Part shown: piece by piece, positions 12,249 through 61,271 of the stretch | How positions within the stretch are numbered: position 1 is the first letter of the stretch | How the letters are laid out: every line of letters starts with the position of its first letter | NCBI GenBank assembly: GCA_035279905.1 | Contig: DATEGZ010000200.1 | Coordinates: 1-64,000 of the forward strand | Source of the DNA: Vicinamibacterales bacterium | GTDB taxonomy: Bacteria > Acidobacteriota > Vicinamibacteria > Vicinamibacterales > SCN-69-37 | Length of the DNA stretch: 64,000 nucleotides | Direction of reading: 5' to 3' | The notes under the pieces: model-generated | The model's database searches: none | What the model was told of the DNA's origin: nothing | Seen by the model: the letters and a program-made list of their open reading frames with translations, nothing else | Position numbers and translations under genes: made by a program

Positions 12249-12647
12249 ATGCGCGGCATGCCGACGCATCGACCCGTACACGCTTCCAATCTCCCTCGGC
12301 CCGCCGGTCCGTATTCGCCCGGCATGGGTTTCGAACGGCTGGTGTTCGTCTCAGGGCAAGGCGCGACCGATCCGGCGACCGGTCAGCTGGCCGGCCCGGA
12401 CGTCGAGACGCAGACCGAGCAGGTCCTCAAGAACGTGCGCGCGATTCTCGTCGCCGCGGGATCGGACTTGCAGTACGTGCTGCGCTGCGGGGTGTTCCTG
12501 ATCGATATCCGCGAGTTCGAGAAGATGAACGGCGTGTACTCGCGGATGTTCGGCGAACATCGGCCGGCCCGCACGACGGTTCAGGCGGCCGCGCTGCCCG
12601 GCGCGGGCCTGCGCGTCGAGATCGACTGCATCGCCTACGTGCCGTAG
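12249..12647 (+). CDS. ridA: RidA / YjgF / endoribonuclease L-PSP family reactive-intermediate deaminase
   Basis: 132 aa. GPYSPG...LVFVSGQ...TEQVLKNVRAIL...TTVQAAALPGAGLRVEIDCIA, typical of RidA. Confidence 0.75.
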   Translation: MRGMPTHRPVHASNLPRPAGPYSPGMGFERLVFVSGQGATDPATGQLAGPDVETQTEQVLKNVRAILVAAGSDLQYVLRCGVFLIDIREFEKMNGVYSRMFGEHRPARTTVQAAALPGAGLRVEIDCIAYVP

Positions 12648-12740
12648 AAGATGACGCCGGGAGTAGTTTTACGCAAAACGTAAAACCACCCCCGGCGTCC
12701 GAGTAGTTTTACGCTTTGCGTAAAACTACTCCCGGCGTCA
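12648..12740. terminator. AT-rich double hairpin in the convergent gap
   Basis: Nested inverted repeats: CCGGGAGTAGTTTTACGC-AAAA-CGTAAAACCACCCCCGG, then a perfect GAGTAGTTTTACGC-TTT-GCGTAAAACTACTC. About 35% GC in a 70% GC genome. Lies between RidA (+) and the di-heme gene (-). Confidence 0.55.
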
Positions 12741-12743
12741 TTT

Positions 12744-13964
12744 TCACAGCGACGCCAGGAACGTCAGCAACTGCAGTTTTCTGAAGTCCGACAGATTGCG
12801 GTACCGCTGGATCACGTTCGCAGCTTCGCCGGCGTGCCGCAGGATCGCGGCGTTCACCGTCAGCGATTCACCGTCGTGCATGAATCGGTTGTGCGTGCGC
12901 AGGCCCCAGAGCGGCGCCGTGCGCACCTTGTTGCGGGTGTCGTGGTCGCCTTGCTGGATGCCGTCACCTGTGCCGACGTCGTGCATCAGAAAATCCCCGA
13001 ACGGGTGGATGATCTTGTTGCCGAGCGCCGCCGGCACGACGAATGCTCCGCCGGCGAACGACGTGCCGGTCGGCGCCGTCGTGATCGACTTGACGTGGCA
13101 GGTCGCGCAGCCAATCGCGTCGAACACGTCTTCGCCGTCTTGCGCATCGCGAGTGGCCGCGAGCGCGGTGTCACGCGGCGGCGCCTTCGACGCGCGCATG
13201 AACTGCGCGAACAGCGCGACGTCCTCGCCGTTGTCCTCCGGATCGGGAACCGGATCGAACGCGGCGATGGACCGCCCGTTCGACGTGTTCTCGGTCGGCG
13301 CCAGCGGGCTGGTCACGCCCATCTCATTCAGGTACGCGTCGGCCGAAAACGACACCAGGCTGGCGTGCTGGTCCTTCCATCCGAACCGGCCGATGCGCCT
13401 CCGGCCGTTCGACTCCAGCACCGAGACGAGCAGGATGTCGCCCTGCATGCCTGGCGGCTGGTTCTGCGCGATCGCGCGGAGCGTGTTGTCGTCGATGGCC
13501 TCAACGTAGCCGTCGCCGAGCGTGTTGAGCGAGGTCCGGAAACTCCTGGTCTCGTTGCCGGGCAGCAGCTGCTCCATCAGCGCAGCGTTCGTGGTCCGGC
13601 TGTGAATCAACGAGCCTCCAGGATGATCGGTGAACGTGTCCGAGCGCGCGTCGTAGTGCCCGGCGCGCAGCTCGGTGATCTGGCTGGTGGCGCCGCTGAC
13701 GGGGTTCTGGTGACACTCGGCACAGGATTGTGCGTTGTACATCGGGCCCAGACCGTCGCCAGTGCCCTCCCGCTCTTCGAACGTCGCTCGCGCGAGGTCG
13801 AATTGGGCCTGAGTCACCATGCCGTTGCTCAGGTTGTCGAATCCCGCGAGCGCTTCGGTCGGGGCGTTACTGTGGAATTGCTGCTGGCCTTCCGTGCTGG
13901 CGACGGCGAGAGCAAGACACGATGCCGATAGATACACTACGAGCGTAGTTCTTGGTGCCTTCAT
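12744..13964 (-). CDS. Di-heme oxidoreductase / putative peroxidase (DUF1111 family)
   Basis: Two CxxCH motifs (CAECH, CATCH). PLWGLRTHNRFMHDGESLT resembles the CCP-like distal heme region. Signal peptide present. Confidence 0.7.
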   Translation of the reverse strand: MKAPRTTLVVYLSASCLALAVASTEGQQQFHSNAPTEALAGFDNLSNGMVTQAQFDLARATFEEREGTGDGLGPMYNAQSCAECHQNPVSGATSQITELRAGHYDARSDTFTDHPGGSLIHSRTTNAALMEQLLPGNETRSFRTSLNTLGDGYVEAIDDNTLRAIAQNQPPGMQGDILLVSVLESNGRRRIGRFGWKDQHASLVSFSADAYLNEMGVTSPLAPTENTSNGRSIAAFDPVPDPEDNGEDVALFAQFMRASKAPPRDTALAATRDAQDGEDVFDAIGCATCHVKSITTAPTGTSFAGGAFVVPAALGNKIIHPFGDFLMHDVGTGDGIQQGDHDTRNKVRTAPLWGLRTHNRFMHDGESLTVNAAILRHAGEAANVIQRYRNLSDFRKLQLLTFLASL

Positions 13965-18025: not shown

Positions 18026-18151
<126 letters not shown>

Positions 18152-29681: not shown

Positions 29682-31309
29682 GCACGCCGACCTGCGCCGC
29701 AGTGCTGGCCCGCACGCTGCGTGAGGCCGGCATCACGCGGATGTTCGGACTGCCGGGCGGTGAAGTGCTCGACTTCATCGACGCCGCCCGGCGCGAAGGC
29801 ATCGACTTTCTCCTCACGCGCCACGAAGCCGGCGCGGCGTTCATGGCCGACGTCACCGGGCAAATCCAGCGGCGCCCGGGTGTCTGCGTCGCGACGCTCG
29901 GACCCGGCGCGATGAACATGGCGCTCGGCGTCGCCAACGCGTATCTCGATCGCTCGCCCGTGATCGCGATCACGGCGACGCTCGCCCGCGCCAACAGCCG
30001 CATCGCCACGCACCAGGATCTCGATCTGAACGCGGTGTACCGCCCGTTCACCAAGCTCGCGCTGACGCTCGACGGGCACGACACGGCCGCGAAGGTGCGG
30101 CACGCGATCGCGGTCAGCCTCGAGCCGCGCATGGGCCCGGTGCACATCGCCGTGCCGAGTGACGTCGCGCGAACGCCGGACGCCGACACGCCGGCCGCAC
30201 CGATCGCGGAACGATCCTTCACGCCCGCGCCGCCCGCGGATCTCGATCGCGTCGCCACCGAGATCGCGCGCGCTCGCCGGCCCGTTGTCGTGCTCGGCAT
30301 CGACGTCAACCCGCACGCGGAGGCGCGCGCGGTGCGTGCGTTCGTCGACGCGCTGGGCGCGCCGGTATTCGTCACGCCCAAGGCCAAGGGCCTCGTGTCC
30401 GAGGACCACCCGCTGTTCTACGGCGTCTGCGCCGGCGTGTCCGCGGACGCCGTCGTCGTGGACTGGCTCGGCCGCGCGGATCTGCTCATCGGCGTTGGAT
30501 TCGACCCGGTGGAGTCCGACAAGGTGTGGCATCACACGATGCCGATGGTCTCCGTCGGCCCGGTGTCGATCGCGAAAGACGATTTCCGCCCACGTGCTGA
30601 AGCCGTTGGAGATCTGAGCACCGCGCTCGCCGTGCTGGCGACGCGGCTGGGCGCGCGGGCGATCGAATGGACCGCCGGCGATCGCGCGACGTTCAGGCGC
30701 GAGCTCGAAGCCGTGCTGCGGCCCACCGCCGTGCCGCGCGGGCTCTCGGGATACGAGCTGACGCGCCGGCTGCGCGAGTCGTTTCCGCGCGACACCATCT
30801 TCGTCACCGACGTCGGCTCAGTGAAGATGGTCACGTCGCAGGCCTGGACGTCGTACGAGCCGCAGACGTTCTTCGAATCCAACGGCCTGTCGGCGATGAG
30901 CTACAGCCTGCCGGCGGCGATGGCCGCGCGACTGCAGTACCCCAAGCGGCCGATTCTCTGCACCATTGGCGACGGCGGGTTCGGCATGACGATCGCCGAG
31001 ATCGAAACCTGCGTGCGCGAGCGCCTGCACTTCACAACGGTCGTTTACAACGACAGCAGCCTGAGCCTGATCGACGCCGCGCAGCAGCGCCGCGGCTACC
31101 CGACCACGGGCGTCCGCCACAGCCAGGTGGACTTCGCCGCGGCCGCCGCGGCTTTCGGCGCGTGGTCGCGCCGGGTCGAGACGATGGAACAACTGGACGC
31201 GGCCCTCGGGCAGTCGGCCGGCATCGACCGGCCGGTCGTGATCGACGCGGTCGTGGATCCGGCGGAGTATAGGGCGCAGACAGGGCCGCGGGGAAAACTT
31301 AAAACTTAG
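29678..31309 (+). CDS. Thiamine-pyrophosphate enzyme of the acetolactate synthase large-subunit family
   Basis: TPP-binding motif GDGGFGMT...NDSSL. N-terminal Pyr domain (GLPGGEVLDFIDA). The last four codons and the TAG stop are encoded inside the family-1 repeat element. Confidence 0.75.
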   Translation: MSTPTCAAVLARTLREAGITRMFGLPGGEVLDFIDAARREGIDFLLTRHEAGAAFMADVTGQIQRRPGVCVATLGPGAMNMALGVANAYLDRSPVIAITATLARANSRIATHQDLDLNAVYRPFTKLALTLDGHDTAAKVRHAIAVSLEPRMGPVHIAVPSDVARTPDADTPAAPIAERSFTPAPPADLDRVATEIARARRPVVVLGIDVNPHAEARAVRAFVDALGAPVFVTPKAKGLVSEDHPLFYGVCAGVSADAVVVDWLGRADLLIGVGFDPVESDKVWHHTMPMVSVGPVSIAKDDFRPRAEAVGDLSTALAVLATRLGARAIEWTAGDRATFRRELEAVLRPTAVPRGLSGYELTRRLRESFPRDTIFVTDVGSVKMVTSQAWTSYEPQTFFESNGLSAMSYSLPAAMAARLQYPKRPILCTIGDGGFGMTIAEIETCVRERLHFTTVVYNDSSLSLIDAAQQRRGYPTTGVRHSQVDFAAAAAAFGAWSRRVETMEQLDAALGQSAGIDRPVVIDAVVDPAEYRAQTGPRGKLKT

Positions 31310-31388
31310 AACTCAAAACTTAGAACTTCAGAGGATCACGCGGTCATTCCGAAGTTCTAAGTTTGAAGTTCTAAGTTCTAAGTTGATC
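31296..31388. repeat. Family-1 tandem-heptamer hairpin element, copy B
   Basis: AACTTAAAACTTAGAACTCAAAACTTAGAACTTCAGAG - loop GGATCACGCGGTCATTCC - GAAGTTCTAAGTTTGAAGTTCTAAGTTCTAAGTTGATC. Spans exactly from inside the stop of the TPP enzyme gene to 3 nt before the stop of the ABC exporter gene. Confidence 0.85.
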
Positions 31389-33221: not shown

Positions 33222-33275
33222 TAGTGAATCCTTGTGGTTCCGGGGTTCCGGGGTTCCGGGGTTCCGAGGTGCGCT
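33222..33275. repeat. Family-2 GGTTCCGG-array element, one-armed copy
   Basis: GTGAATCCTTGTGGTTCCGGGGTTCCGGGGTTCCGGGGTTCCGAGGTGCGCTGGCGGCG. Homologous to the left arm and loop-proximal part of the copies at 38162 and 49462. No complementary right arm. Confidence 0.7.
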
Positions 33276-38171: not shown

Positions 38172-38305
38172 TGATCCTTGTGGTTCCGGGGTTCCGGGGT
38201 TCCGGGGTTCCGAGGTTCCGGGGTTCGCTGGCCACGACAGCGGTCTGCAAGACGTGATCACGATCGGCAGAACCCCGGAACCGCGGAACCTCGGAACCCC
38301 GGAAC
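38162..38305. repeat. Family-2 GGTTCCGG-array hairpin element, full copy
   Basis: Left arm GTGGTTCCGGGGTTCCGGGGTTCCGGGGTTCCGAGGTTCCGGGGTTCGCTGG. Loop contains GACGTGATCACGATCGG. Right arm CAGAACCCCGGAACCGCGGAACCTCGGAACCCCGGAACC. Lies between the LytTR stop (38171) and the VWA stop (38306). Confidence 0.85.
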
Positions 38306-40252
38306 CTACTGTGTCTTTCGAATGGTGGCCGTCACAGTGCCCGTAACGTTCCCCGCTTCGACGACGGACGCACGAATCAAGTACGTCCCCGCCTGCAGAT
38401 CGTCCACAGGCAGCTCCGCGATCGCCTGGCGCGTGGTACCGACGAGCTCGGGCGTGATCTCGCGCTCGATCAGCGTGGTCTCGCTGCCCGGAGCCGTCAG
38501 CGTAAAGCGTACGACCGCCTCCGGCGGGTTCGCGGTGTCGGGATAGAGCTCCAGCGACGCACCGATCGTTGTCGCGCCGTCGGGCACCCGCTCGAGCGCG
38601 AGGAACCGTGGCTGCCGGTCCGCGCCCGCCCACATCGTGAACAGATCGCTCACCGAGAACGATCCGAAGTGCGCGAGACCGGCCGTGAGGCCGTGCTCGA
38701 CGCTGCCGATGTTGCCTTTGCCGTCCGCAACGACGAACCGCAGGCGGTACTTGCCGGTCTCGATCGGCACGGGAAACGCGAGCAGGTAGTCTTCCCCGGG
38801 ACTTGGCACCGGCACGTCACGGCGTCCCGCCTGCTTGATCTCGCCCGCCTCGTTGACGAGCCCGTACATCGCGATGAGCGGCCCCTGCACGCTCGACGGC
38901 ACCTGGACGTTGACGCCAAGCTGCAGCCCACTGCTGTTCGGATCGTGCCGCTGCGCGGTGCCGAGCGCGATCGGCACGCCAAACGCGACGCCGCCCTGCG
39001 CGAGCGTGGTCTTCAGCTGCTCGGCGATCGGCACGGCCTCGGGCGCGACCGAGGCCATCAGCGCCTCGCGGTTCACGCGCACCGTCGTGCCGGACGTCTT
39101 CACGGACACCTTCGTCGCCAAATACCGGCGCTTGTCCGTGACCACGGGCGCCTCGACGCCGAGGCGATAGAACCCGGACGTCTCCGCCTCGATGCGCTTG
39201 AAGAAGCGATCCGCCTGTCCCACGACGAGAAACGCCGTGCCGCCAGCGTTTTCGGCCACGGTCTGCGCGCCGGAATTCAGAAACCGGCCTTCGCTCACAC
39301 GCGCGTCCCTCCGCGCGAACCCGGTGTCGCGCATGTCGATGTCCTCGGGGATCTCGCTGAGCGCGTAAAACTGCACGCCATTCTCCGCCGCGGCGCGGCC
39401 GAGCGGCGCGAGCTGGCGCTGCAAGTCCAGCTCGGTGCCGATCGCGACGCCGGCCGACATCGCGATCACGATCTTCGGTGCCGGCGCCAGCTTGAGGAGT
39501 CTCATCAGCTGCTGAACAGCCGCGAGCTGCATCGCCGTGGTGTGCGTCACCTGCTGCGCGTACGCGCGCCCAGCCGCTTCGACGATCGGCGTGCACTGAT
39601 CGACGGGCAGACTGAGCTCAGGACACTCCCGCGCCGCGACCATGCCGAGCGTCTCGCGCGGCAGGCCGCGGTCGATGTCGATGGCCTCCGGCACCGAGAT
39701 GTAGAACGGCGCCGTGATGTTGTCGTTGCGCCCGATCATCTTCTTGTCGTGCAGCGCCGCAAGGACCGCCGCGCGATCGCGCGTTGGATTCACCGTCGGG
39801 CCCAGCCCGCTCGTCGTCGTGATGCCGATGAGATCGTCCACGTCGAAGCTGTCGAGCATGCGCTCGGCGGCGACGAGCAACGCCTTGCCTGGGCCCGGCT
39901 TGTACGACAAATCGTCGAAGAGCAGCACGACGACGCGGCCGCCGCGACGCGCAGGCGCGGCCTGCCCCGGCTGGTTCGTCGTCTGGCGCGCCTCAGCCGT
40001 CGATCCGGCCGCGCTGCCGAACTCGAGAAAGTCGAGCGCGCGCACCGGCCGCGCCTGCTTCTCGAGCGTGACGACGAAGTCCTCGGGCTTGAGCCCACGG
40101 ACGGGCTTGCCGTCCTTGTCCACGACGGTGACGTCGAGCGTCACGAGCTCGACGCCGCCGCGGAAGACGGGCTGAGGTGTCTGCTGCGCTCGAGGCGCCG
40201 CGACGAACACGGCGAGCGTGGCAATCAAGATCGCGCGGCGCATTGGGGCCAT
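38306..40252 (-). CDS. VWA-domain secreted protein (Acidobacterial VWFA-related domain family), paralog 1
   Basis: Signal peptide. The FRGGVELVTLDVTVVDKDGKPVRGLKPEDF N-terminal block is typical of the Acidobacterial VWFA-related domain. VWA fold (VVLLFDDLS...). Confidence 0.75.
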   Translation of the reverse strand: MAPMRRAILIATLAVFVAAPRAQQTPQPVFRGGVELVTLDVTVVDKDGKPVRGLKPEDFVVTLEKQARPVRALDFLEFGSAAGSTAEARQTTNQPGQAAPARRGGRVVVLLFDDLSYKPGPGKALLVAAERMLDSFDVDDLIGITTTSGLGPTVNPTRDRAAVLAALHDKKMIGRNDNITAPFYISVPEAIDIDRGLPRETLGMVAARECPELSLPVDQCTPIVEAAGRAYAQQVTHTTAMQLAAVQQLMRLLKLAPAPKIVIAMSAGVAIGTELDLQRQLAPLGRAAAENGVQFYALSEIPEDIDMRDTGFARRDARVSEGRFLNSGAQTVAENAGGTAFLVVGQADRFFKRIEAETSGFYRLGVEAPVVTDKRRYLATKVSVKTSGTTVRVNREALMASVAPEAVPIAEQLKTTLAQGGVAFGVPIALGTAQRHDPNSSGLQLGVNVQVPSSVQGPLIAMYGLVNEAGEIKQAGRRDVPVPSPGEDYLLAFPVPIETGKYRLRFVVADGKGNIGSVEHGLTAGLAHFGSFSVSDLFTMWAGADRQPRFLALERVPDGATTIGASLELYPDTANPPEAVVRFTLTAPGSETTLIEREITPELVGTTRQAIAELPVDDLQAGTYLIRASVVEAGNVTGTVTATIRKTQ

Positions 40253-40262
40253 GTTATTGGTT

Positions 40263-40287
40263 CCGAGGTTCCCCGGAACCCTTATTG
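40263..40287. repeat. Family-2 mini hairpin between the tandem VWA genes
   Basis: GGTTCCGAGGTTCCCCGGAACC. Confidence 0.5.
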
Positions 40288-42228: not shown

Positions 42229-42231
42229 GGT

Positions 42232-46307: not shown

Positions 46308-46413
46308 GGATTAACTTAAAACTTAGAACTAAGAACTTAGAACTTCGGAGTACACACGCGTCACGCGTGACGCTCTGAAGTTCTAAGTTTGAAGTTCTAA
46401 GTTCTAAGTTGAT
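46308..46413. repeat. Family-1 tandem-heptamer hairpin element, copy C
   Basis: GATTAACTTAAAACTTAGAACTAAGAACTTAGAACTTCGGAG - loop TACACACGCGTCACGCGTGACGCTCT - GAAGTTCTAAGTTTGAAGTTCTAAGTTCTAAGTTGATC. The right arm is identical to copy B. Confidence 0.85.
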
Positions 46414-46467
46414 CCCGGCCCCTAACCTCCCGGCAGGCCAATACGTCTAAGCTCGACGTATCGACCT

Positions 46468-49463: not shown

Positions 49464-49543
49464 GTGTGGTTCCGGGGTTCCGCGGTTCACTGGCACCGTC
49501 ACGCGAACCCCGGAACCTCGGAACCCCGGAACCCCGGAACCAC
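49462..49543. repeat. Family-2 GGTTCCGG-array hairpin element, copy 2
   Basis: GAGTGTGGTTCCGGGGTTCCGCGGTTCACTGG - loop CACCGTCACGCG - AACCCCGGAACCTCGGAACCCCGGAACCCCGGAACCACC. Immediately after the ADOP stop. Confidence 0.8.
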
Positions 49544-49559
49544 CAGTAAAATCGAGTGC

Positions 49560-51377
49560 TTGTCGTTTCAACTCACTCCCGAAGCCAGACGACGATGGGC
49601 CTGGCGCCTGGCCGTGGCGCTGGTCGTCGGGTACGCGGCGTGGCTGCGGCTCGTCATCCTCGTCGAGCGATTCGGCCCGTTCGATCATCCCGGCTGGCTC
49701 GTCACGCTCTCCCACGTCGTCGAGGCGCCCAAGCCGATGCTCGCGCCCGCGTCGTGGGTCTGGGCCAAGAGCGACCCGCCGTACGTCGGCGGCGACCCCA
49801 TCAACTACCTGAAATTCGCGCGCGAGCTTCCGAGCTTCTACGGCGCGACGGTTCGCGAGCCGCTGTTTCTTGAAGTCATCCGCATCTTCTTCAAGGTCAC
49901 GGCCAATCAGGACGTCGCGATCAGCTTTGCGTCGCTGACGTTCTCGGTCCTATGCGTGCTCGCGACGTATCTCGTTGGCGGTCGAGCGATCTCGCGCCCG
50001 GTCGGTCTTGCGGCCGCGTTGGCGCTCGCGATCGAGCAGGAGTTCGCGGCGTGGGCACCGGATGGCTGGCGTGACGAGACGTTTGCGGCGTTCATCCTGC
50101 TGACCGCGTGGGCGCTCCTCCGGTTGAAAGACAAACGCACGTGGCAGAACGCCGTGATCGTGGGCGTGGTCGGCGCGGCGGCGTGCCTGACACGCATCAC
50201 GTCGGTCAGCGTCGTAGTCCCCGGCTTGATCTGGGTGGCGTGGCCGCGCGAGCGGGCCGCCTGGCGGACGTCAGCGCGGTACGCCGGAATCGCCGCGCTG
50301 GTCACGGCGGTGCTGGTCGCGCCGTACCTCGTCAACTGCTACCGCCAGACCGGCGACGCGCTCATCGCGATCAACTACCACACGCGGTTCTATCTGGCGG
50401 CTGAAGGCACGATCACCGACGCGCCGCCCGGCGCGCTGCGCTACGCCGCGGCCAAGTTTCGCGCGCATCCGATCGGCGAGACGGACACGGCCGTACGCGG
50501 TCTCGTGCAGTATCCGTTCGTCACGAAGTTTCGCGGGTTCTACGGCTGGTGGCCGGCGCTCGGGCCGATCCTGCGCGCGCTCTCGGCCCTCGGCCTGCTG
50601 ATCTGGATCTGGCAGCCGCGCGGGCGGTTCCTGCTGCTCGTGCTGATCTCGTCGCTCGCGCCGTACATGATCACGTGGACGCTGCAGGGCGGCGGCGAGT
50701 GGCGGTTCACGATGCACGCGTACCCGTTCTACCTGCTGGCCGCATTCGCGGCCGCGGCCTGGCTCGTGGCGGCCGCGCGATCGCTCGTCGCGAATCGTTC
50801 AACGGCGTTCGCGTCGTGGCGCGCGCAGCGCGTTGGCGTGAAGGCGCTCGCCACCGCGGGCCTGGTCGCGAGCGGCTGGCTGGCGAGCTTCTGGGCGCCG
50901 TACTTCGTCGCGCGCGAGGGCTTGCTCGCCGGCGAGCCCACGTCGGTCGCGGCGGGCGACAACGACGGCGTGTTCTTCAGCACAGGCTGGACGGGCCTCG
51001 TGCACTCCGGCATGGTCACGTCACGGTTCGCGAATGCCGAGCGGGCCACGCTGCGCGTGCCCTTTCCGGAGCGCCGCGGCTACCACCTCGTGCTGAGGAT
51101 GGACGCGATTCCCGACGCCAACGGATCGCCGCAGCGCGTGCGTCTCTTCATCGACGACCGGCCCTCCGGCGTGTTCGATCTGGCGTGGAATGAGGAGCGC
51201 GTCGGCGCGCTTACGCTCGATCTGCCGGCGAGCGAGGTCTCGCCCGGGCGCGCGCGGCTCGATTTCGTCGCCGATCGCGTCGCGCCGCTGGGGCCCGCGG
51301 AAGCGTCGTTCCCCGACCTGCCCGCCTCGGCGCCCGTCGCGTTTCGGCTGTGGTACGTGCGGGTTACTCCTCAATAA
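49560..51377 (+). CDS. Polytopic membrane protein with a C-terminal soluble domain, putative GT-C-fold glycosyltransferase (ArnT/PMT-like)
   Basis: About 10 transmembrane helices followed by a soluble domain of about 150 aa. The start is uncertain (TTG 49560 or GTG 49614). The first ~30 codons of the track ORF are a translation of the repeat element. Confidence 0.5.
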   Translation: MSFQLTPEARRRWAWRLAVALVVGYAAWLRLVILVERFGPFDHPGWLVTLSHVVEAPKPMLAPASWVWAKSDPPYVGGDPINYLKFARELPSFYGATVREPLFLEVIRIFFKVTANQDVAISFASLTFSVLCVLATYLVGGRAISRPVGLAAALALAIEQEFAAWAPDGWRDETFAAFILLTAWALLRLKDKRTWQNAVIVGVVGAAACLTRITSVSVVVPGLIWVAWPRERAAWRTSARYAGIAALVTAVLVAPYLVNCYRQTGDALIAINYHTRFYLAAEGTITDAPPGALRYAAAKFRAHPIGETDTAVRGLVQYPFVTKFRGFYGWWPALGPILRALSALGLLIWIWQPRGRFLLLVLISSLAPYMITWTLQGGGEWRFTMHAYPFYLLAAFAAAAWLVAAARSLVANRSTAFASWRAQRVGVKALATAGLVASGWLASFWAPYFVAREGLLAGEPTSVAAGDNDGVFFSTGWTGLVHSGMVTSRFANAERATLRVPFPERRGYHLVLRMDAIPDANGSPQRVRLFIDDRPSGVFDLAWNEERVGALTLDLPASEVSPGRARLDFVADRVAPLGPAEASFPDLPASAPVAFRLWYVRVTPQ

Positions 51378-51384
51378 GGCACGG

Positions 51385-51545
51385 GTTCTTCAGGTACGAC
51401 CGGTACGTCAGGTACTCGGAACGCACTGGCGCTGGCCAACTTATTTGGTTTTTCTAAAGAAGCGGACTGAGATGCAGGTTCCTCGTACCCGACGTACCGG
51501 TCGTACCTCTCGTACCTGTCGAACCCTGCCCTGTCCGGAAACGCC
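51385..51545. repeat. Family-4 GGTACGNC-array hairpin with a long AT-rich loop
   Basis: Arm CAGGTACGACCGGTACGTCAGGTACTCGGAAC pairs with GGTTCCTCGTACCCGACGTACCGGTCGTACCTCTCGTACCTGTCGAACC. The loop is about 55 nt and contains TTATTTGGTTTTTCTAAAGAAG. Confidence 0.7.
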
Positions 51546-51602
51546 CTGTAGACCGGTGCTATAGTCAATCGAATTCCCCGTTCGATTTCAGGAGGCATTC
51601 CC

Positions 51603-52319
51603 ATGCGCTTGGTTCGTCCCTTTGCAATTGCAGTCGCTTTCGCGTGTCTCATGCCTGCCGTGCCAGGCGCCCAGATGGACCCGGACCGCGTCGTCCCGAA
51701 CGGCGGGATTTCAGCCGCCGGCTGGCAGGGAAAGATTGATGCTGGCTCGGTCGCGCAAGGCCGAACGATCAACGACTCGAAGTTCGCGCAGGAAGGCGCC
51801 GCCCTGCACCTGATCATTGGACCGGCTGCCGTGTATTGGAATCCCGCAAACACGGCCAGCGGCGACTACACGATCAAGGGCACCTTCAAGGAACCGAAGA
51901 TGCAGGATGCGAACAGCCATCCGCATCCGTACGGCATCTTCATCGGCGGCCACAACATGGGCACCGACAAGATGAGCCTCGTGTACTGCATTGCGTATGG
52001 CGATGGCCGCGCGCTCGTACGCGGGTTCAATCCAACGGCAGGTCCGCCCACGGGCAACGGCCATGGCGTCTTCACGCCGATGCGCGCCGCGGCAAACGCC
52101 GCCGTGAAAAAGGTGGCGCCCGGTGAGTCGGTCACGCAGGATATTTCGTGGACGGTGAAGGGCGACTCCGCCAGCTGCACGATTAACGGCACGGTCGTCG
52201 CGACCTACACCAAAGCCGATCTCGTCGGACCGGACAAGCTCGAGAGCTTCGACGGCGTGTATGGCATCCGCATCAGCCACAACGTCGAAGCGATCGTCAC
52301 GGGCTTCGGCAAGCAGTAA
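51603..52319 (+). CDS. Secreted hypothetical protein (DUF1080 / LamG-like jelly-roll)
   Basis: Signal peptide MRLVRPFAIAVAFACLMPAVPGA. Size and beta-rich composition match the DUF1080 3-keto-disaccharide hydrolase-like family. Confidence 0.45.
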   Translation: MRLVRPFAIAVAFACLMPAVPGAQMDPDRVVPNGGISAAGWQGKIDAGSVAQGRTINDSKFAQEGAALHLIIGPAAVYWNPANTASGDYTIKGTFKEPKMQDANSHPHPYGIFIGGHNMGTDKMSLVYCIAYGDGRALVRGFNPTAGPPTGNGHGVFTPMRAAANAAVKKVAPGESVTQDISWTVKGDSASCTINGTVVATYTKADLVGPDKLESFDGVYGIRISHNVEAIVTGFGKQ

Positions 52320-52322
52320 GAC

Positions 52323-52470
52323 TGGGGGCACTGGGTCATTGGGTCATTGGGTCATTGAGCTATTGGGTTATTGAGGGTGAACGCTCGCATCCAGACCGGG
52401 CGTTTCGCTCCCAGGACGCGGCCCCAATAGCCCAATGACTCAATGGCCCAATGGCCCGATGGCCCAACGG
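52323..52470. repeat. Family-3 GGGTCATT-array hairpin element
   Basis: Arm CACTGGGTCATTGGGTCATTGGGTCATTGAGCTATTGGGTTATTGAGGG. Complementary arm CCCCAATAGCCCAATGACTCAATGGCCCAATGGCCCGATGGCCCAACGG. Fills the convergent gap from 52319 to 52472. Confidence 0.8.
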
Positions 52471-52471
52471 C

Positions 52472-56943: not shown

Positions 56944-57113
56944 TACTCCTCCTCGCAAGTCTCGCCGCCGGAGACCCGGCTGGCGCGTACGTCGCGGAGG
57001 GGGTAACCGCGCATAGTTAGTAAGGGTAACGAGGGTATCACACGGCTCGAGGCTTGCCCGGTCATGGCAGGTATAGAATCCGGGCCACGAAGCCAATCGA
57101 TGCGAAGCAGGGC

Positions 57114-59540
57114 ATGATCGGCCGTACGCTGTCGCACTACACCCTCGTGAGCGAACTGGGCCGCGGAGGCATGGGTGTCGTCTACCGCGCCATCGATGTC
57201 ACTCTGGGCCGCGAAGTCGCGATCAAGGTGCTTCTGCCGGAGTTCGTCGCGGATCCCGAGCGCCGGCACCGCTTCGTTCAGGAGGCCCGGGCGGCCGCGG
57301 CGCTCGAGCATCCGCACATCGGTGCTGTGTACGAGGTCGATGAAGCCGATGGCATGACGTTCATCGCGATGGAGCTCATCCGCGGTGAGCGCCTCAAGGA
57401 GGTACTCGCGCGCAGCGGTCTCTCAAGCAGCCGGGCGATTCAGCTGGCGGTCGAGATCGCCGAAGCATTGGGCAAGGCACACGACAAAGGCATCGTCCAC
57501 CGCGATCTCACGCCCTCCAACGTCGTCATCACCGAGGACGGTCACGCGAAGGTCATCGACTTCGGGTTGGCCAAGCTGGTCGAGCCGATAGCCGGTCCGA
57601 CGAGCGAAGCGGAGACCAGAGCGCGGACCGGAAGCGGTCTCGTCATGGGCACGACGGCCTACATGTCTCCGGAGCAGGCGCGCGGCAGGCCGGCTGACCA
57701 CCGGTCGGACGTGTTCAGCCTGGGTCTCGTTCTATTCAAGATGCTCTCTGGCGATCTCGCCTTCAACGGCCCCAGCGGCGCGGAGACGCTGAACGCGATC
57801 ATCAACCAGCCCGATCCACCGCTGAAGCTGTCGTTCGAAGGTGAGCCCGCCATCGAGCTTCGGCGGATCGTGCACAAGTGCCTCGCGAAGGATCCACGCG
57901 ATCGCTACCAGACGATGAAGGATCTCGCCGTGGATCTCCGCGAGGCGGCGAGGCGGCTGGACGCGACGTCGACCGCGCCGGTCACGGCTGTGCGGTCCGG
58001 GACCACGCGTGCTCGTCACTGGATCCCTTTCGCCGTCGTGGCCGCGATCCTGGCCATCGTTGCGGGGTACGGCTGGTATCGGGCGCACGGATCCGCGACG
58101 GCTCCAGTCGAAACGGCCCGGAAGCGGATCGCCGTGCTGCCATTTCAGAACCTCGGCGCGCCCGAGGATGAGGACTTCGCCGCCGGCGTTTCTGAGGAAA
58201 TCATGAGCCGGCTGTCTGCTGTCAGCCGGCTGGCCGTCATCTCACGAAACAGCGTGCTGCCGTACAAGAAAACCGACAAGAGCTCGCGCGACATCGGCAA
58301 GGAGCTCGATGTTGACTACCTCGTCGTCGGCACCGTGCGTTGGCAGCCCGCCAAGGACGGACCTGGCCGCGTTCGCGTCACGCCGCAGCTCATTCACGTC
58401 GCGGACGACACTCAAGTCTGGTCCGACACGTACGAGCGCGGCTTCGAGGAAGTGTTCGCTGTCCAGTCTGATATCGCAACACACGTGATTCAGGAGTTGA
58501 ACATCGCCGTGCTGGCCCTCGAGCAGACGATCATCAAGGGCCGGCCGATGCCAAACTTCGAAGCCTATCGCGAGTACTTACGCGGCTACTACACGGCCTA
58601 CCATGCTCCGCGTCCGGATAGCCGGGAGGCGTTGCAACACTTCGAGCGCGCCGTCGCACTGGATCCCGGGTTTGCCGCCGGCCACGCTGCCGTCGCAAAC
58701 ATGGCCGCGACAATGTTCTTCTACGACGAGGCCACGAGCGCCTTGGAGGACAAAGGGAATCGCGCCATCGAACGAGCTCTCGCGATCGATCCCAACTTGG
58801 CGGACGCATACCTGGCGCGCGGCACGTTCTTGTGGTCCCAACCGCACGGGTTCGCGCACGAACCAGCGCTGCGTGAGTATCACCGGGCGCTCGCACTGAA
58901 TCCCAGCCTGGCGGAGGGCCGAGTCGCAATCGCTCGGATCTACGAGCACATCGGCCTCCTCGATGAGGCACGGGAGCAGTTGACGCAGGCGCTCGCTCTG
59001 GACCCTGCCGCCGCCACAGCGAGGGGCCGCATCGAGCTGACCTACCTGTGGCAACACGACTACCAGCGAGTCGCAGAAATCGCGCGGTCGGCGGCCCCCA
59101 GCTGGTTCAAAGTCGAGATGCTCAGCTACCTTGGCCAGGATCAAGCCGCCCGAGACCTCGCCGCCACGCTTGCCCCCAATCCCTGGGTGCCGAATATGAG
59201 CTCGGGATTCAACATTGTTCTAATGGCGAAGCTAGGCCAGCACGAGGGCGTCAAGGCCGCGCTGCCGGTGCTGGAGAACCTCGCGCGAAACCCCCGAGGC
59301 CTCAGTCACTTCCACCACGCGCAGTACAGTCTCGGCCTCGCTCATGCGCTGCTTGGCCATAAGCGTGAAGCCGTCAGCTGGCTGCGCATGGCCGCAGCCC
59401 AGGGCTTTCCCTGCTACCCGTTCTACGCCAAGGATCCAAATCTCTCCGGGCTCAAGGGGGATCCGGATTTCGAGGCGTTCATGGCGGAATTGAAGGCGCA
59501 GTGGGAGCAGCTCCGAATCGAGGCCGCCAAGCACTCGTAA
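57114..59540 (+). CDS. Ser/Thr protein kinase with a transmembrane helix and a C-terminal TolB-N-like/TPR sensor region
   Basis: GRGGMGVVYRA...AIK, HRDLTPSNV and DFGLAK kinase motifs. Transmembrane helix WIPFAVVAAILAIVAGYGWY. Repeats in the C-terminal region. Confidence 0.85.
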   Translation: MIGRTLSHYTLVSELGRGGMGVVYRAIDVTLGREVAIKVLLPEFVADPERRHRFVQEARAAAALEHPHIGAVYEVDEADGMTFIAMELIRGERLKEVLARSGLSSSRAIQLAVEIAEALGKAHDKGIVHRDLTPSNVVITEDGHAKVIDFGLAKLVEPIAGPTSEAETRARTGSGLVMGTTAYMSPEQARGRPADHRSDVFSLGLVLFKMLSGDLAFNGPSGAETLNAIINQPDPPLKLSFEGEPAIELRRIVHKCLAKDPRDRYQTMKDLAVDLREAARRLDATSTAPVTAVRSGTTRARHWIPFAVVAAILAIVAGYGWYRAHGSATAPVETARKRIAVLPFQNLGAPEDEDFAAGVSEEIMSRLSAVSRLAVISRNSVLPYKKTDKSSRDIGKELDVDYLVVGTVRWQPAKDGPGRVRVTPQLIHVADDTQVWSDTYERGFEEVFAVQSDIATHVIQELNIAVLALEQTIIKGRPMPNFEAYREYLRGYYTAYHAPRPDSREALQHFERAVALDPGFAAGHAAVANMAATMFFYDEATSALEDKGNRAIERALAIDPNLADAYLARGTFLWSQPHGFAHEPALREYHRALALNPSLAEGRVAIARIYEHIGLLDEAREQLTQALALDPAAATARGRIELTYLWQHDYQRVAEIARSAAPSWFKVEMLSYLGQDQAARDLAATLAPNPWVPNMSSGFNIVLMAKLGQHEGVKAALPVLENLARNPRGLSHFHHAQYSLGLAHALLGHKREAVSWLRMAAAQGFPCYPFYAKDPNLSGLKGDPDFEAFMAELKAQWEQLRIEAAKHS

Positions 59541-59597
59541 CGCATTCATCGCCTCCGCACTCAACACTGCATCGTGCTACGCTCCGCTTCACAACCC

Positions 59598-61271
59598 ATG
59601 GCTCGACGACGCCTTCGTTCGCAGTTGCTCGTTGTCATTGTCGGCTTGGTCGCTCTTGCCGCAGCAGGTGCAGCCCAGACGCCTCAACGCGGCGCCCCAC
59701 CGGCGCAGCCCGCGGCGCCGACACGGGGCGACATCCTCCGCGGCGAGTACAGCGAATTTCGTGCGAACAACGACTTGCTCTCGTATCACCTCGACATCCG
59801 CGTCGACCCGGACAAGAAGCTGATCAGCGGCAAGAACACGATCAAATTCCGCATGCTGAAGGACGCGACGCGGATCCAGCTCGACCTGTACGCGAACCTG
59901 AACGTCGACAAGATCCTCTACGGCCAGACGCCGCTCAAGTACGAGCGTGAGCTGAACACCGTGTTCGTCGATTTCGCCAATACCCTCAAGACCGGACAGG
60001 TCGTCGCGATCGACTTCTACTACTCGGGGACGCCGACGTCAGGCTCGCGTTTCGGCGGCTTCACGTTCGGGAAGGATCCAGCGGGCCGGCCGCTCATCTG
60101 GTCGGCCTGCGAGGGCCCGGGCGCGATGTTCTGGTGGCCGAACAAGGACCAGTGGCGCGACGAAGTCGAGGACATGGAGATCAGCGTCGCGATCCCGAAC
60201 GACCTCGTGGACGTCTCGAACGGCCGCTTCGAGAAGAAGACCGACCTCGGCGACGGCTACACGCGCTGGGACTGGATGGTGCACTACCCCATCAACAACT
60301 ACGACGTCTCGGTGAACATCGGGAAGTACGAGCACTTCGCCGATTCAGTGGGCGATCTCACGATGGACTTCTACGCGTTCCCTGAGGATCTCGAGAAAGC
60401 CAAGGCGCAGTTCGTACAGGCCAGAGGGATGATCGAAGCCTACACGCACTACTTCGGCGAATATCCGTTCAAGAAGGACGGCTACAAGCTGATCGAGGCG
60501 GCCTACACCGGGATGGAGCACCAGAGCGCCGTCACCTACGGCAACGGCTTCCACAACGGCTACGGCCGGGCGCCGTACGACTGGACCGGCGTCGGCATCA
60601 GCACGAAGTTCGACTTCATCATCATCCACGAGAGCGGACACGAGTGGTTCGGCAACGCGGTGTCCGCCGCCGACGTGTCCGACATGTGGATCCACGAGGG
60701 CTGGACGACGTATCTCGAGTGCCTCTACGTCGAGTACACGTTCGGCCACGACGACTACGTGAAGTACACGAACGGCTACAAGTCGCACGTCCGCAACGAC
60801 CGGCCGATCATCACGCAGCGCGGCGTGCACCGCGAGCCGCCGCAGGACATGTACTTCAAGGGCGCGCTCTTCCTGAACACCCTGCGCAGCGCCACGAACG
60901 ACGACAAGAAGTGGTTCACGACGATCCACGACTTCTTTCAGACGTTCAAGTACAAGAACATCATGACGGAGGACGTCGTCGCGTTCTTCAACCAGCGCCT
61001 CGGCCGCGACCTGACGCCGGTGTTCAATCAGTACCTCCGCCACACGGCGCTGCCGACGCTCGAGCTGATGTTCGACGACGCGAATCACACGGTGATGTAC
61101 CGCTGGAAGGCGGACGAGCCGAACTTCGCGATGCCCGTGCGCGTCCGCCAGAACGGGCAGTCGAAGATGATCGAGCCGACGCTCACGTGGCAGACGATGA
61201 AGACGACCGTCGGCAAGGATCAGTTCGAGGTCGTGACCGACGAGTTCTTCATCGAGGTGAGCAAGCAGTAG
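59598..61271 (+). CDS. Secreted M1-family zinc aminopeptidase
   Basis: HESGHEWFGN (HExxH) plus WIHEGWTTYLE (second Glu ligand). Signal peptide MARRRLRSQLLVVIVGLVALAAAGAA. Confidence 0.8.
   Translation: MARRRLRSQLLVVIVGLVALAAAGAAQTPQRGAPPAQPAAPTRGDILRGEYSEFRANNDLLSYHLDIRVDPDKKLISGKNTIKFRMLKDATRIQLDLYANLNVDKILYGQTPLKYERELNTVFVDFANTLKTGQVVAIDFYYSGTPTSGSRFGGFTFGKDPAGRPLIWSACEGPGAMFWWPNKDQWRDEVEDMEISVAIPNDLVDVSNGRFEKKTDLGDGYTRWDWMVHYPINNYDVSVNIGKYEHFADSVGDLTMDFYAFPEDLEKAKAQFVQARGMIEAYTHYFGEYPFKKDGYKLIEAAYTGMEHQSAVTYGNGFHNGYGRAPYDWTGVGISTKFDFIIIHESGHEWFGNAVSAADVSDMWIHEGWTTYLECLYVEYTFGHDDYVKYTNGYKSHVRNDRPIITQRGVHREPPQDMYFKGALFLNTLRSATNDDKKWFTTIHDFFQTFKYKNIMTEDVVAFFNQRLGRDLTPVFNQYLRHTALPTLELMFDDANHTVMYRWKADEPNFAMPVRVRQNGQSKMIEPTLTWQTMKTTVGKDQFEVVTDEFFIEVSKQ

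Follow-up and report, generated by a model that had tools for sequence, protein, structure and literature searches.

An interrupted palindrome with tandem-unit arms just after a stop codon in an acidobacterial contig: one copy of a dispersed repeat family with a possible role at gene 3' ends

What is the long hairpin that starts one base after a stop codon at position 51378 of an acidobacterial contig, and does it regulate either of the genes beside it? The stretch of DNA analyzed, referred to here as the window, comprises 64,000 nucleotides (positions 1 to 64,000 of the forward strand) of contig DATEGZ010000200.1 from the Vicinamibacterales assembly GCA_035279905.1; it has a G+C content of 67.6%, and the closest relatives found are uncultured Acidobacteriota. 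An earlier note, made from the sequence of the window, had described a GGTACG-array hairpin between two co-directional genes and had offered a terminator, an attenuator and a structured small RNA (sRNA) as possible explanations, its heading favoring the latter two. The answer we favor, with a probability of roughly 0.55, is that the DNA at 51378-51531 represents a palindromic repeat family dispersed in one clade of uncultured soil Acidobacteriota and that it has a terminator-like role at the 3' ends of genes. Judged from sequence, it appears to be a strain-variable element similar to repetitive extragenic palindromes (REPs) and transposable elements of the miniature inverted-repeat type (MITEs), and its function would be that of a 3' end structure.

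The element consists of two arms built from tandem 9-nt units and mirrored around a 55-nt spacer. It begins at the base that follows the TAA stop codon (51375-51377, plus strand) of a gene for a PMT_2 glycosyltransferase, a placement given both by the sequence and by the gene calls of the source contig. The left arm (51378-51422) comprises an outer stem, GGCACGGGTTC, followed by the 9-nt units, the first of which (GGTTCTTCA) is degenerate, and the right arm (51478-51531) comprises five CGTACC-type 9-nt units and the outer stem GAACCCTGCC. The family core (51418-51482) has a conserved left end, GGAACGCACTGGCGCTGGCCAACTT, a variable AT-rich center and a conserved right end, ATGCAGGTTCC. The arm unit is GGTACGNNN, present four times on the left and five times on the right. 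In register, the left arm reads GGTTCTTCA GGTACGACC GGTACGTCA GGTACTCGG, and the reverse complement of the right arm reads GGTTCGACA GGTACGAGA GGTACGACC GGTACGTCG GGTACGAGG; the arms mirror each other unit by unit, the ACC variant included, and the surplus fifth unit of the right arm forms a bulge in the fold. Eight exact GGTACG hexamers are found in the array, which has nine 9-nt units with one degenerate.

A repeat search placed inverted-repeat arms at 51381-51422 and 51478-51519 (42 nt each, 81% complementary, 55 nt between them) and identified four direct copies at exact 9-nt spacing in the right arm, while Tandem Repeats Finder assigned a period of 9 to both arms. RNA folding extended the stem outward beyond the arms of the repeat search, giving an interrupted long hairpin that spans 51378-51531. 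The pattern GGTACGNNNGGTAC, allowing at most one mismatch, occurs eight times in the window as compared with 0.35 expected, a count reached by none of 100 shuffles, and six of these eight matches fall inside the element. The minimum free energy (MFE) of the RNA is -79.6 kcal/mol on the plus strand (z -7.4) and -82.1 kcal/mol on the minus strand (z -7.7), and for neither strand did any of 200 shuffled sequences fold as well. Thus, the hairpin of GGTACG-type units described in the earlier note is present (z about -7), as is a loop of 55 nt. The description of that loop as very AT-rich holds for its central ~24 nt (51441-51464, 29% G+C) and not for the whole spacer, GCACTGGCGCTGGCCAAC...GATGCAG, which has 49% G+C; moreover, the loop sequence as quoted there had lost the first 17 nt of the spacer. 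The tail 3' of the stem, CTGTCCGGAAACG, is without a U-tract, and each arm has one GGG run only. Three separate contigs, which come from different samples or runs, carry the element without a single base difference, so it is not an assembly artifact.

To delineate the family, we searched public metagenomes for exact matches to three GGTACG units and found them in at least 120 contigs. Many of these matches are Gly-Thr coding repeats from unrelated organisms, but among the matches listed, about 25 are non-coding arrays of the element type, carried by contigs of 62-69% G+C. Many of the contigs in which the element was found are of acidobacterial type (64-69% G+C). Paired inverted arrays are found in L010, L060, L067, L087, L095, L107, L112 and others. 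At least 22 of the arrays have the stop codon of an open reading frame (ORF) with high G+C content at third codon positions 2-16 nt upstream, and the ORFs that adjoin the arrays are unrelated to one another: they include FabH-like, radical SAM, amidohydrolase, MFS transporter, DUF4097, FabZ/LpxA and peptidase M3 genes. About 10 arrays are situated at contig ends, as expected of multicopy repeats that break assemblies.

The dispersed copies have more in common than their units. An alignment of seven of them (A1; the window, L087, L089, L112, L121, L107 and L067) revealed a shared core with the left end GGAACG..CT..CGCTGG.CAACTT.TTT, the right end AGATGAC.G.ATGCAGGTTCC and a variable, mostly AT-rich center; its short form is GGAACG..CTGGCGCTGGYCAAC, the AT-rich center, and (GATGAC)..ATGCAGGTTCC. 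An nhmmer profile built from this alignment detected further full or partial cores in L088, L111, L043, L116, L065, L105, L122 and L005, as well as second core copies in L121 and L087; in all, at least 17 copies with the core are present among the matches listed. A core common to copies at unrelated loci points to the dispersal of a unit, rather than to independent growth at each site, and loop ends conserved among such copies mark a repeat family, rather than a locus-specific regulator. Relative to the abutting gene, the core is oriented forward in about eight copies and in reverse in three, too few to call a bias.

Across the family, the 9-nt unit is GGTACGNCN and elements are about 100-270 bp long, with 3-10 units per arm and near-equal counts in both arms of most copies. 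Unit variants are mirrored, as in L087, where a TCA unit stands third from the outside in both arms, and the variant triplet differs from copy to copy (TCG in L087, ACA/ACG in L107). Mirrored variants, near-equal counts and copy-specific triplets together suggest that units are amplified locally and that some process keeps the arms complementary. A literature search by unit sequences returned primer noise only. One match, L043:1008-1130, is a half element: it has the left arm and the start of the core, and then a textbook terminator (GCCGGACCTGAGGGTCCGGC plus TTTTTTT). No other copy seen has a T-tract.

A regulator specific to this locus would need to be conserved at the orthologous loci, and there the hairpin and its loop are not conserved. 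As orthologous loci we took the contigs that encode the closest homologues of the 238-aa protein encoded downstream of the element, namely L005, L009, L006 and L008 (93%, 90%, 89% and 83% protein identity, respectively). The junction between the PMT_2 gene and the 238-aa gene is kept without a hairpin in L006, L009 and L008, and in the comparison with these four closest loci the intact element is found in the window strain only. The distance from the stop codon to a conserved block, described below, is 22-24 nt in L006 and L009; L008 has a 44-nt spacer without the block. L005 carries a related but rearranged element, with GGTACG/GGTGCG units on one side only and the core in the opposite orientation (nhmmer E=0.001, reverse strand), and this version folds no better than shuffled sequence (z -0.44). 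Conservation of the loop in relatives, which the earlier note had suggested checking, was thus not observed: both element and loop are missing from three of the four orthologous loci (83-90% identity). The 24-nt filler of L006, CTGTCGTCGACAGG, aligns to the first ~25 nt of the L005 element, CTGTCGTACGACGGGT, and both resemble a single unit pair; for this reason, the junction may long have carried some form of the element, in varying states of expansion and decay. The reverse case of presence and absence is seen at the yajQ junction, where L009 has an AGGCACT heptamer hairpin (L009:451-539) 3 nt after the yajQ stop codon and the window has a 3-nt spacer (42229-42231) and no hairpin. A scan of GTDB genomes yielded a single relative, L004 (65% identity); its two flanking genes no longer lie side by side, so that it is uninformative about the junction.

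A putative promoter and leader block of the 238-aa gene (51536-51602, plus strand) is conserved in the window, L005, L006 and L009, with the consensus CGGA.A...CCGGTG(C/T)TATAGTCAA...GTTCGA(C/T)TTCAGGAGG(C/A)ATTCCCATG. An extended -10-like box, TGCTATAGT (51557-51565), and a Shine-Dalgarno sequence, AGGAGG (51590-51595), both lie downstream of the hairpin; between the end of the element and the conserved -10-like box there are ~26 nt, and ~72 nt separate the hairpin from the next ATG. We infer that this block acts as the promoter of the 238-aa gene. Because the promoter-like block is 3' of the hairpin, the hairpin is probably at the end of the upstream transcription unit and, judging by this arrangement, probably outside the leader of the 238-aa gene. 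A strict scan for consensus sigma-70 promoters gave no site at the locus, and a scan of 51300-51700 for a hairpin plus T-tract gave no terminator-like site. Rfam gave no match, either at the gathering threshold across the whole window or at E<=1 across 51300-51650.

The element is one of ~10 long hairpins found at gene 3' ends in the window, most of which have tandem-unit arms. Hairpins of the AACTTAG unit (period 7) are at 18026-18151, 31296-31384 and 46308-46415. The GGTTCCGG unit (period 8) makes up full hairpins at 38182-38306 and 49466-49543, a mini hairpin at 40259-40280 within a 29-nt spacer, and a one-armed array at 33236-33270 that precedes a TonB-receptor-like ORF in a divergent region. 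The TGGGTCAT unit (period 8) forms a hairpin at 52325-52471 that fills the gap between the 238-aa gene and a convergent PPK2 gene, the GGTACGNNN unit (period 9) forms the element considered here, from 51381, and a REP-like dimer without tandem units, GACGCCGGGAGTAGTTTTACGCAAAACGTAAAAC..., is found at 12647-12745. In the window, no two-armed element begins more than 10 nt past a stop codon, and five of them take up the gap between two convergent genes almost exactly. The earlier note had mentioned other copies of the GGTACG array and had regarded the position of this one, between two plus-strand genes, as unusual. Neither statement survived: the other hairpins of the window are built of different units, and those at 46308-46415 and 49466-49543 likewise lie between plus-strand genes.

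Comparison with relatives extends this picture to the sister hairpins. The AACTTAG family has a core of its own, CAGAG.ATCACGCGG, which is present in the window, L009 and L101 (L101:5239-5323), and hairpins of GGTTCCG and AGGCACT units are found in related contigs; the same junction is occupied by different unit families in different strains. At the junction of the DUF4139 and PadR genes, a hairpin is kept in three genomes (the window, L009 and L004), with diverged units and preserved folding (z -13, -6 and -7.8); the genomes that retain it share ~73-86% DNA identity, and the hairpin shows compensating changes. Strand asymmetry, assessed by G-U pairs and by MFE on the plus and minus strands, showed no consistent bias across eight hairpins; the one at 52325-52471 folds clearly better on the plus strand (-93.7 vs -78.1 kcal/mol, 9 G-U pairs). 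Canonical terminators, comprising a hairpin and a T-tract, are not enriched in positions 1-60000 of the window (24 vs 27.8 expected).

Under the reading that we favor, the upstream genes (PadR, a MacB-type permease and PMT_2) would be transcribed into the element, which would then fold as an interrupted stem of ~50 bp. This stem would serve as a 3' end structure without a U-tract, either terminating transcription or blocking 3' exonucleases, and would shield the downstream promoter from read-through. The element itself would be dispensable and subject to fast turnover, with close strains differing by the gain, loss, rearrangement and possibly inversion of copies. Its arms would lengthen and shorten by slippage of whole units, and either selection for pairing or copying templated by the hairpin would keep them mirrored. 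In high-GC bacteria, 3' stem-loops tend to have long stems and U-tracts that are short or absent, and some of these stem-loops stop exonucleases once Rho-dependent termination has taken place (PMC13613805); the proposed 3' end role fits these published structures. Consistent with such a role, the DUF4139/PadR hairpin has been kept despite sequence change, and canonical terminators are not enriched. The terminator option of the earlier note is plausible insofar as the hairpin starts right after the stop codon, as does the whole family, albeit with no U-tract.

Several observations weigh against this reading. The case for a terminator or stabilizer, though plausible, is one of position and structure, and the hairpin lacks the U-tract. 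A near-perfect stem of more than 40 bp could be a substrate of RNase III and would then destabilize the mRNA. Both strands fold equally well, with no G-U asymmetry that would point to a function at the RNA level, and close relatives have no hairpin at the junction, so that any function here is non-essential. With regard to dispersal, neither nhmmer nor a pattern scan found a second core or GGTACG array in the 64-kb window, and none of the 35 window ORFs scanned matched a transposase family in Pfam. As regards the putative mobility of the element, comparison of the window and of L005 with the L006 and L009 sites that lack the intact element, whose flanks have diverged, showed no target-site duplication.

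Many of the same observations would be expected if the element were selfish or neutral DNA, that is, a foldback-type MITE or a locally expanding palindrome that survives only in the safe stretch behind stop codons and leaves expression unchanged. Presence, absence and rearrangement among close strains, the spread of copies to unrelated genes, the copies at contig ends, folding without strand bias, and relatives with no hairpin of any kind at the junction all agree with this explanation. It is harder to reconcile with the DUF4139/PadR hairpin, which was retained with compensating changes at ~73-86% DNA identity, with elements that fill convergent gene gaps exactly, and with mirrored unit variants, which suggest that pairing is maintained; furthermore, a stem this stable would be unlikely to be present in a transcript without effect. 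We regard neutrality as unlikely, but as an explanation to be taken seriously. A small palindrome after the stop codon might also have grown in place by 9-nt slippage, in which case the likeness between copies would reflect convergent expansion or gene conversion, and not transposition. In favor of this, the L006 filler and the start of the L005 element match and both look like a single unit pair, the variant triplet peculiar to each copy fits local amplification, and no target-site duplication was seen. However, a core of ~35 conserved positions is common to copies beside unrelated genes on different contigs, and local slippage cannot create a core, so the core at least must have been dispersed. 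Growth in place is an improbable account of the hairpin.

The remaining explanations assign the element to the 238-aa gene or to a product of its own. An iteron-like array of protein-binding sites in the DNA could control the promoter of the 238-aa gene, given that the array, with its eight exact GGTACG hexamers, stops ~26 nt short of the conserved -10-like box and that an AT-rich center could aid cruciform extrusion. Yet the family occurs at gene 3' ends, among them those of convergent pairs that have no promoter close by; at equivalent positions, this genome carries quite different units, of periods 7 and 8; and the promoter block is conserved in relatives that have no array. We give this idea little credence. 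The sRNA and attenuator of the earlier note, to which a riboswitch in the 5' leader of the downstream secreted protein may be added, would suit a very stable structure in an intergenic region between co-directional genes, ~72 nt ahead of the next ATG. Neither proposal is supported, because the element is absent from three of the four closest orthologous loci and is rearranged and non-folding in the fourth, the conserved -10-like box and Shine-Dalgarno sequence are downstream of the hairpin, promoter and terminator consensus sequences and Rfam matches (even at E<=1) are lacking, the core occurs in both orientations, and copies follow unrelated genes. Both are very unlikely. Finally, a small ORF could run from the ATG of ATGCAGGTTCC (51472) through the right arm and encode an Arg/Thr-rich repeat peptide, the period of 9 corresponding to three codons; by eye, we read a frame of 30 codons in the window (51472-51564) and one of ~27 codons in L087 (1182-1265). 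In this case, the window offers no convincing Shine-Dalgarno sequence, the core is found in both orientations, the periods of 7 and 8 in the sister families cannot hold a reading frame, and ATGCAGGTTCC is explained by pairing with GGAAC across the core. We judge the short frame to be a by-product of the 9-nt period and not a gene, and a coding function scarcely merits belief. Two known classes of repeat were also rejected: integron attC sites, because the neighbors are syntenic chromosomal genes in both orientations and ends of the GTTRRRY type are absent, and CRISPR arrays, which were ruled out on anatomy.

By analogy, the closest described case of a dispersed repeat such as the one proposed here is that of the inverted GGGAATC arrays found near stop codons in Xanthomonas. 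Each Xanthomonas genome has 70-75 convergent pairs of these heptamer arrays, which could form stem-loops (Rehm et al. 2015, PMC4692102). For the most part, the arrays are found on or across the end of an ORF, no more than 50 bp from a stop codon; most are transcribed, their length differs between related species, and they are not associated with insertion sequences (IS), while related GGGGAYT heptamer repeats are found in Nostoc (PMC4692102). The acidobacterial element likewise has two convergent arrays of tandem units within ~50 bp of a stop codon and a length that varies between relatives. In contrast to the Xanthomonas arrays, its unit has 9 nt and is not G-rich, leaving the window copy without G-quadruplex potential, a conserved and family-specific core separates its arms, and unit families of period 7, 8 and 9 coexist in one genome of a different phylum, the Acidobacteriota. 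The unit, the core, the co-families of period 7 and 8, and the phylum also set the element apart from every other system compared below.

With the REP, BIME and REPIN sequences of Proteobacteria, the element shares its nature as a dispersed extragenic palindrome at gene 3' ends, strain variation, and high-copy extragenic dispersal, with at least 17 core-bearing copies and at least 22 arrays beside stop codons on different contigs, and with ~10 hairpin elements of all families in the 64-kb window. Roles in termination and in mRNA stabilization have been proposed for REP elements. REPs, however, measure 20-40 bp, form imperfect palindromes tagged with GTAG or CGTC, are linked to RAYTs and have no tandem-unit arms, whereas this element is ~150 bp long, has tandem-unit arms and shows no consistent tag at its ends; no RAYT or other transposase was found among the 35 window ORFs scanned by Pfam. 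In GTAG-type REPs, the stop codon is often provided by the terminus of the repeat or lies directly beside it (PMC3733652). MITEs such as Correia/NEMIS, ERIC and RUP resemble the element in size range (50-500 bp), long inverted arms, multiple copies and presence/absence polymorphism, but have terminal inverted repeats of unique, IS-derived sequence along with target-site duplications; in the present element, tandem arrays that vary in unit number make up the arms, and neither a target duplication nor a parent IS was found. When co-transcribed, these MITEs fold into long RNA hairpins. Foldback (FB) transposons of Drosophila and other eukaryotes have long inverted arms of short tandem repeats, with repeat counts that differ from copy to copy and from one arm to the other, and a central loop that is variable. 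They differ in being kilobase-sized, eukaryotic and unrelated to stop codons, and no homology is implied. Intrinsic (Rho-independent) terminators also place a GC-rich hairpin directly downstream of the stop codon, as does the stem from 51378; by comparison with them, the element has no 3' U-tract, a 55-nt spacer in place of a 3-8-nt loop, and a stem several times longer than usual.

More speculatively, the GGTACG, AACTTAG, GGTTCCGG, TGGGTCAT and AGGCACT families might belong, in Acidobacteriota, to an undescribed superfamily of foldback-type palindromes. A core of its own would characterize each family, together with arms of 7-, 8- or 9-nt units that would expand by slippage and be mirror-copied across the hairpin; the elements would home just after stop codons and would supply terminators without U-tracts to the lineage, with an enzyme acting on hairpins perhaps responsible for the spread. 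We consider this wider proposal possible but doubtful. If the favored reading is right, the stretch would not be a regulator of its two neighbors, but would illustrate how transcription units acquire and renew their 3' ends in a soil phylum that is abundant but little studied, these ends being supplied by repeat families with tandem-unit arms that turn over between close strains. Annotation would be affected, as mechanical ORF calls cross the hairpins (ORF 49464), and so would metagenome assembly, as contigs break inside the elements. Terminator prediction in high-GC bacteria would have to allow for such elements, and bacteria would offer a means of testing how long palindromes with mirrored tandem arms originate and persist.

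Minor observations concern the hairpins themselves. The palindrome GACGCCGGGAGTAGTTTTACGCAAAACGTAAAAC..., which lacks tandem units and forms a dimer in the window, occurs as single copies at gene 3' ends in L009:10715-10770 and L008:300-350. The sequence (C)GCTGGC(G) was noticed at the arm-core junction of different families (window 33273, 38227 and 51431; L004:4760-4775, reverse strand). As a common junction motif it was rejected, since the hexamer is frequent (117 copies) and three occurrences in ~450 nt of cores, against a hand-estimated ~0.8, are only marginally above chance. A bias in stop-codon type near the elements was likewise dismissed as not meaningful, TAG being already the commonest in the window (20 TAG, 18 TGA, 7 TAA).

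The flanking genes are as the earlier note had described them. The upstream gene, which ends at 51377, encodes a GT-C type glycosyltransferase of the PMT_2 family (Pfam PF13231, E=2.5e-18), and the downstream gene (51603-52319, plus strand) encodes the 238-aa protein, which has a signal-peptide-like N-terminus and no Pfam match. More than 4000 homologues of this protein were found, and the closest of those with a known source are acidobacterial. The local order is DUF4139, the hairpin at 46308-46415, PadR, a MacB/FtsX-type permease, the hairpin at 49466-49543, PMT_2, the 51378-51531 hairpin, the 238-aa gene, the hairpin at 52325-52471, and PPK2 on the minus strand. The mechanical ORF at 49464..51377 runs through the 49466 hairpin; the gene probably starts at 49614 instead. 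Two gene blocks of the window are extra by comparison with L009 and L004: 52322-53662, which contains PPK2 and a SpoIIAA-like gene and begins at the TGGGTCAT hairpin, and 57049-59672, which contains a Ser/Thr kinase with TPR repeats. In L006 (L006:1400-2852), the 238-aa gene is tandemly duplicated, with copies of 233 and 238 aa lying 38 nt apart.

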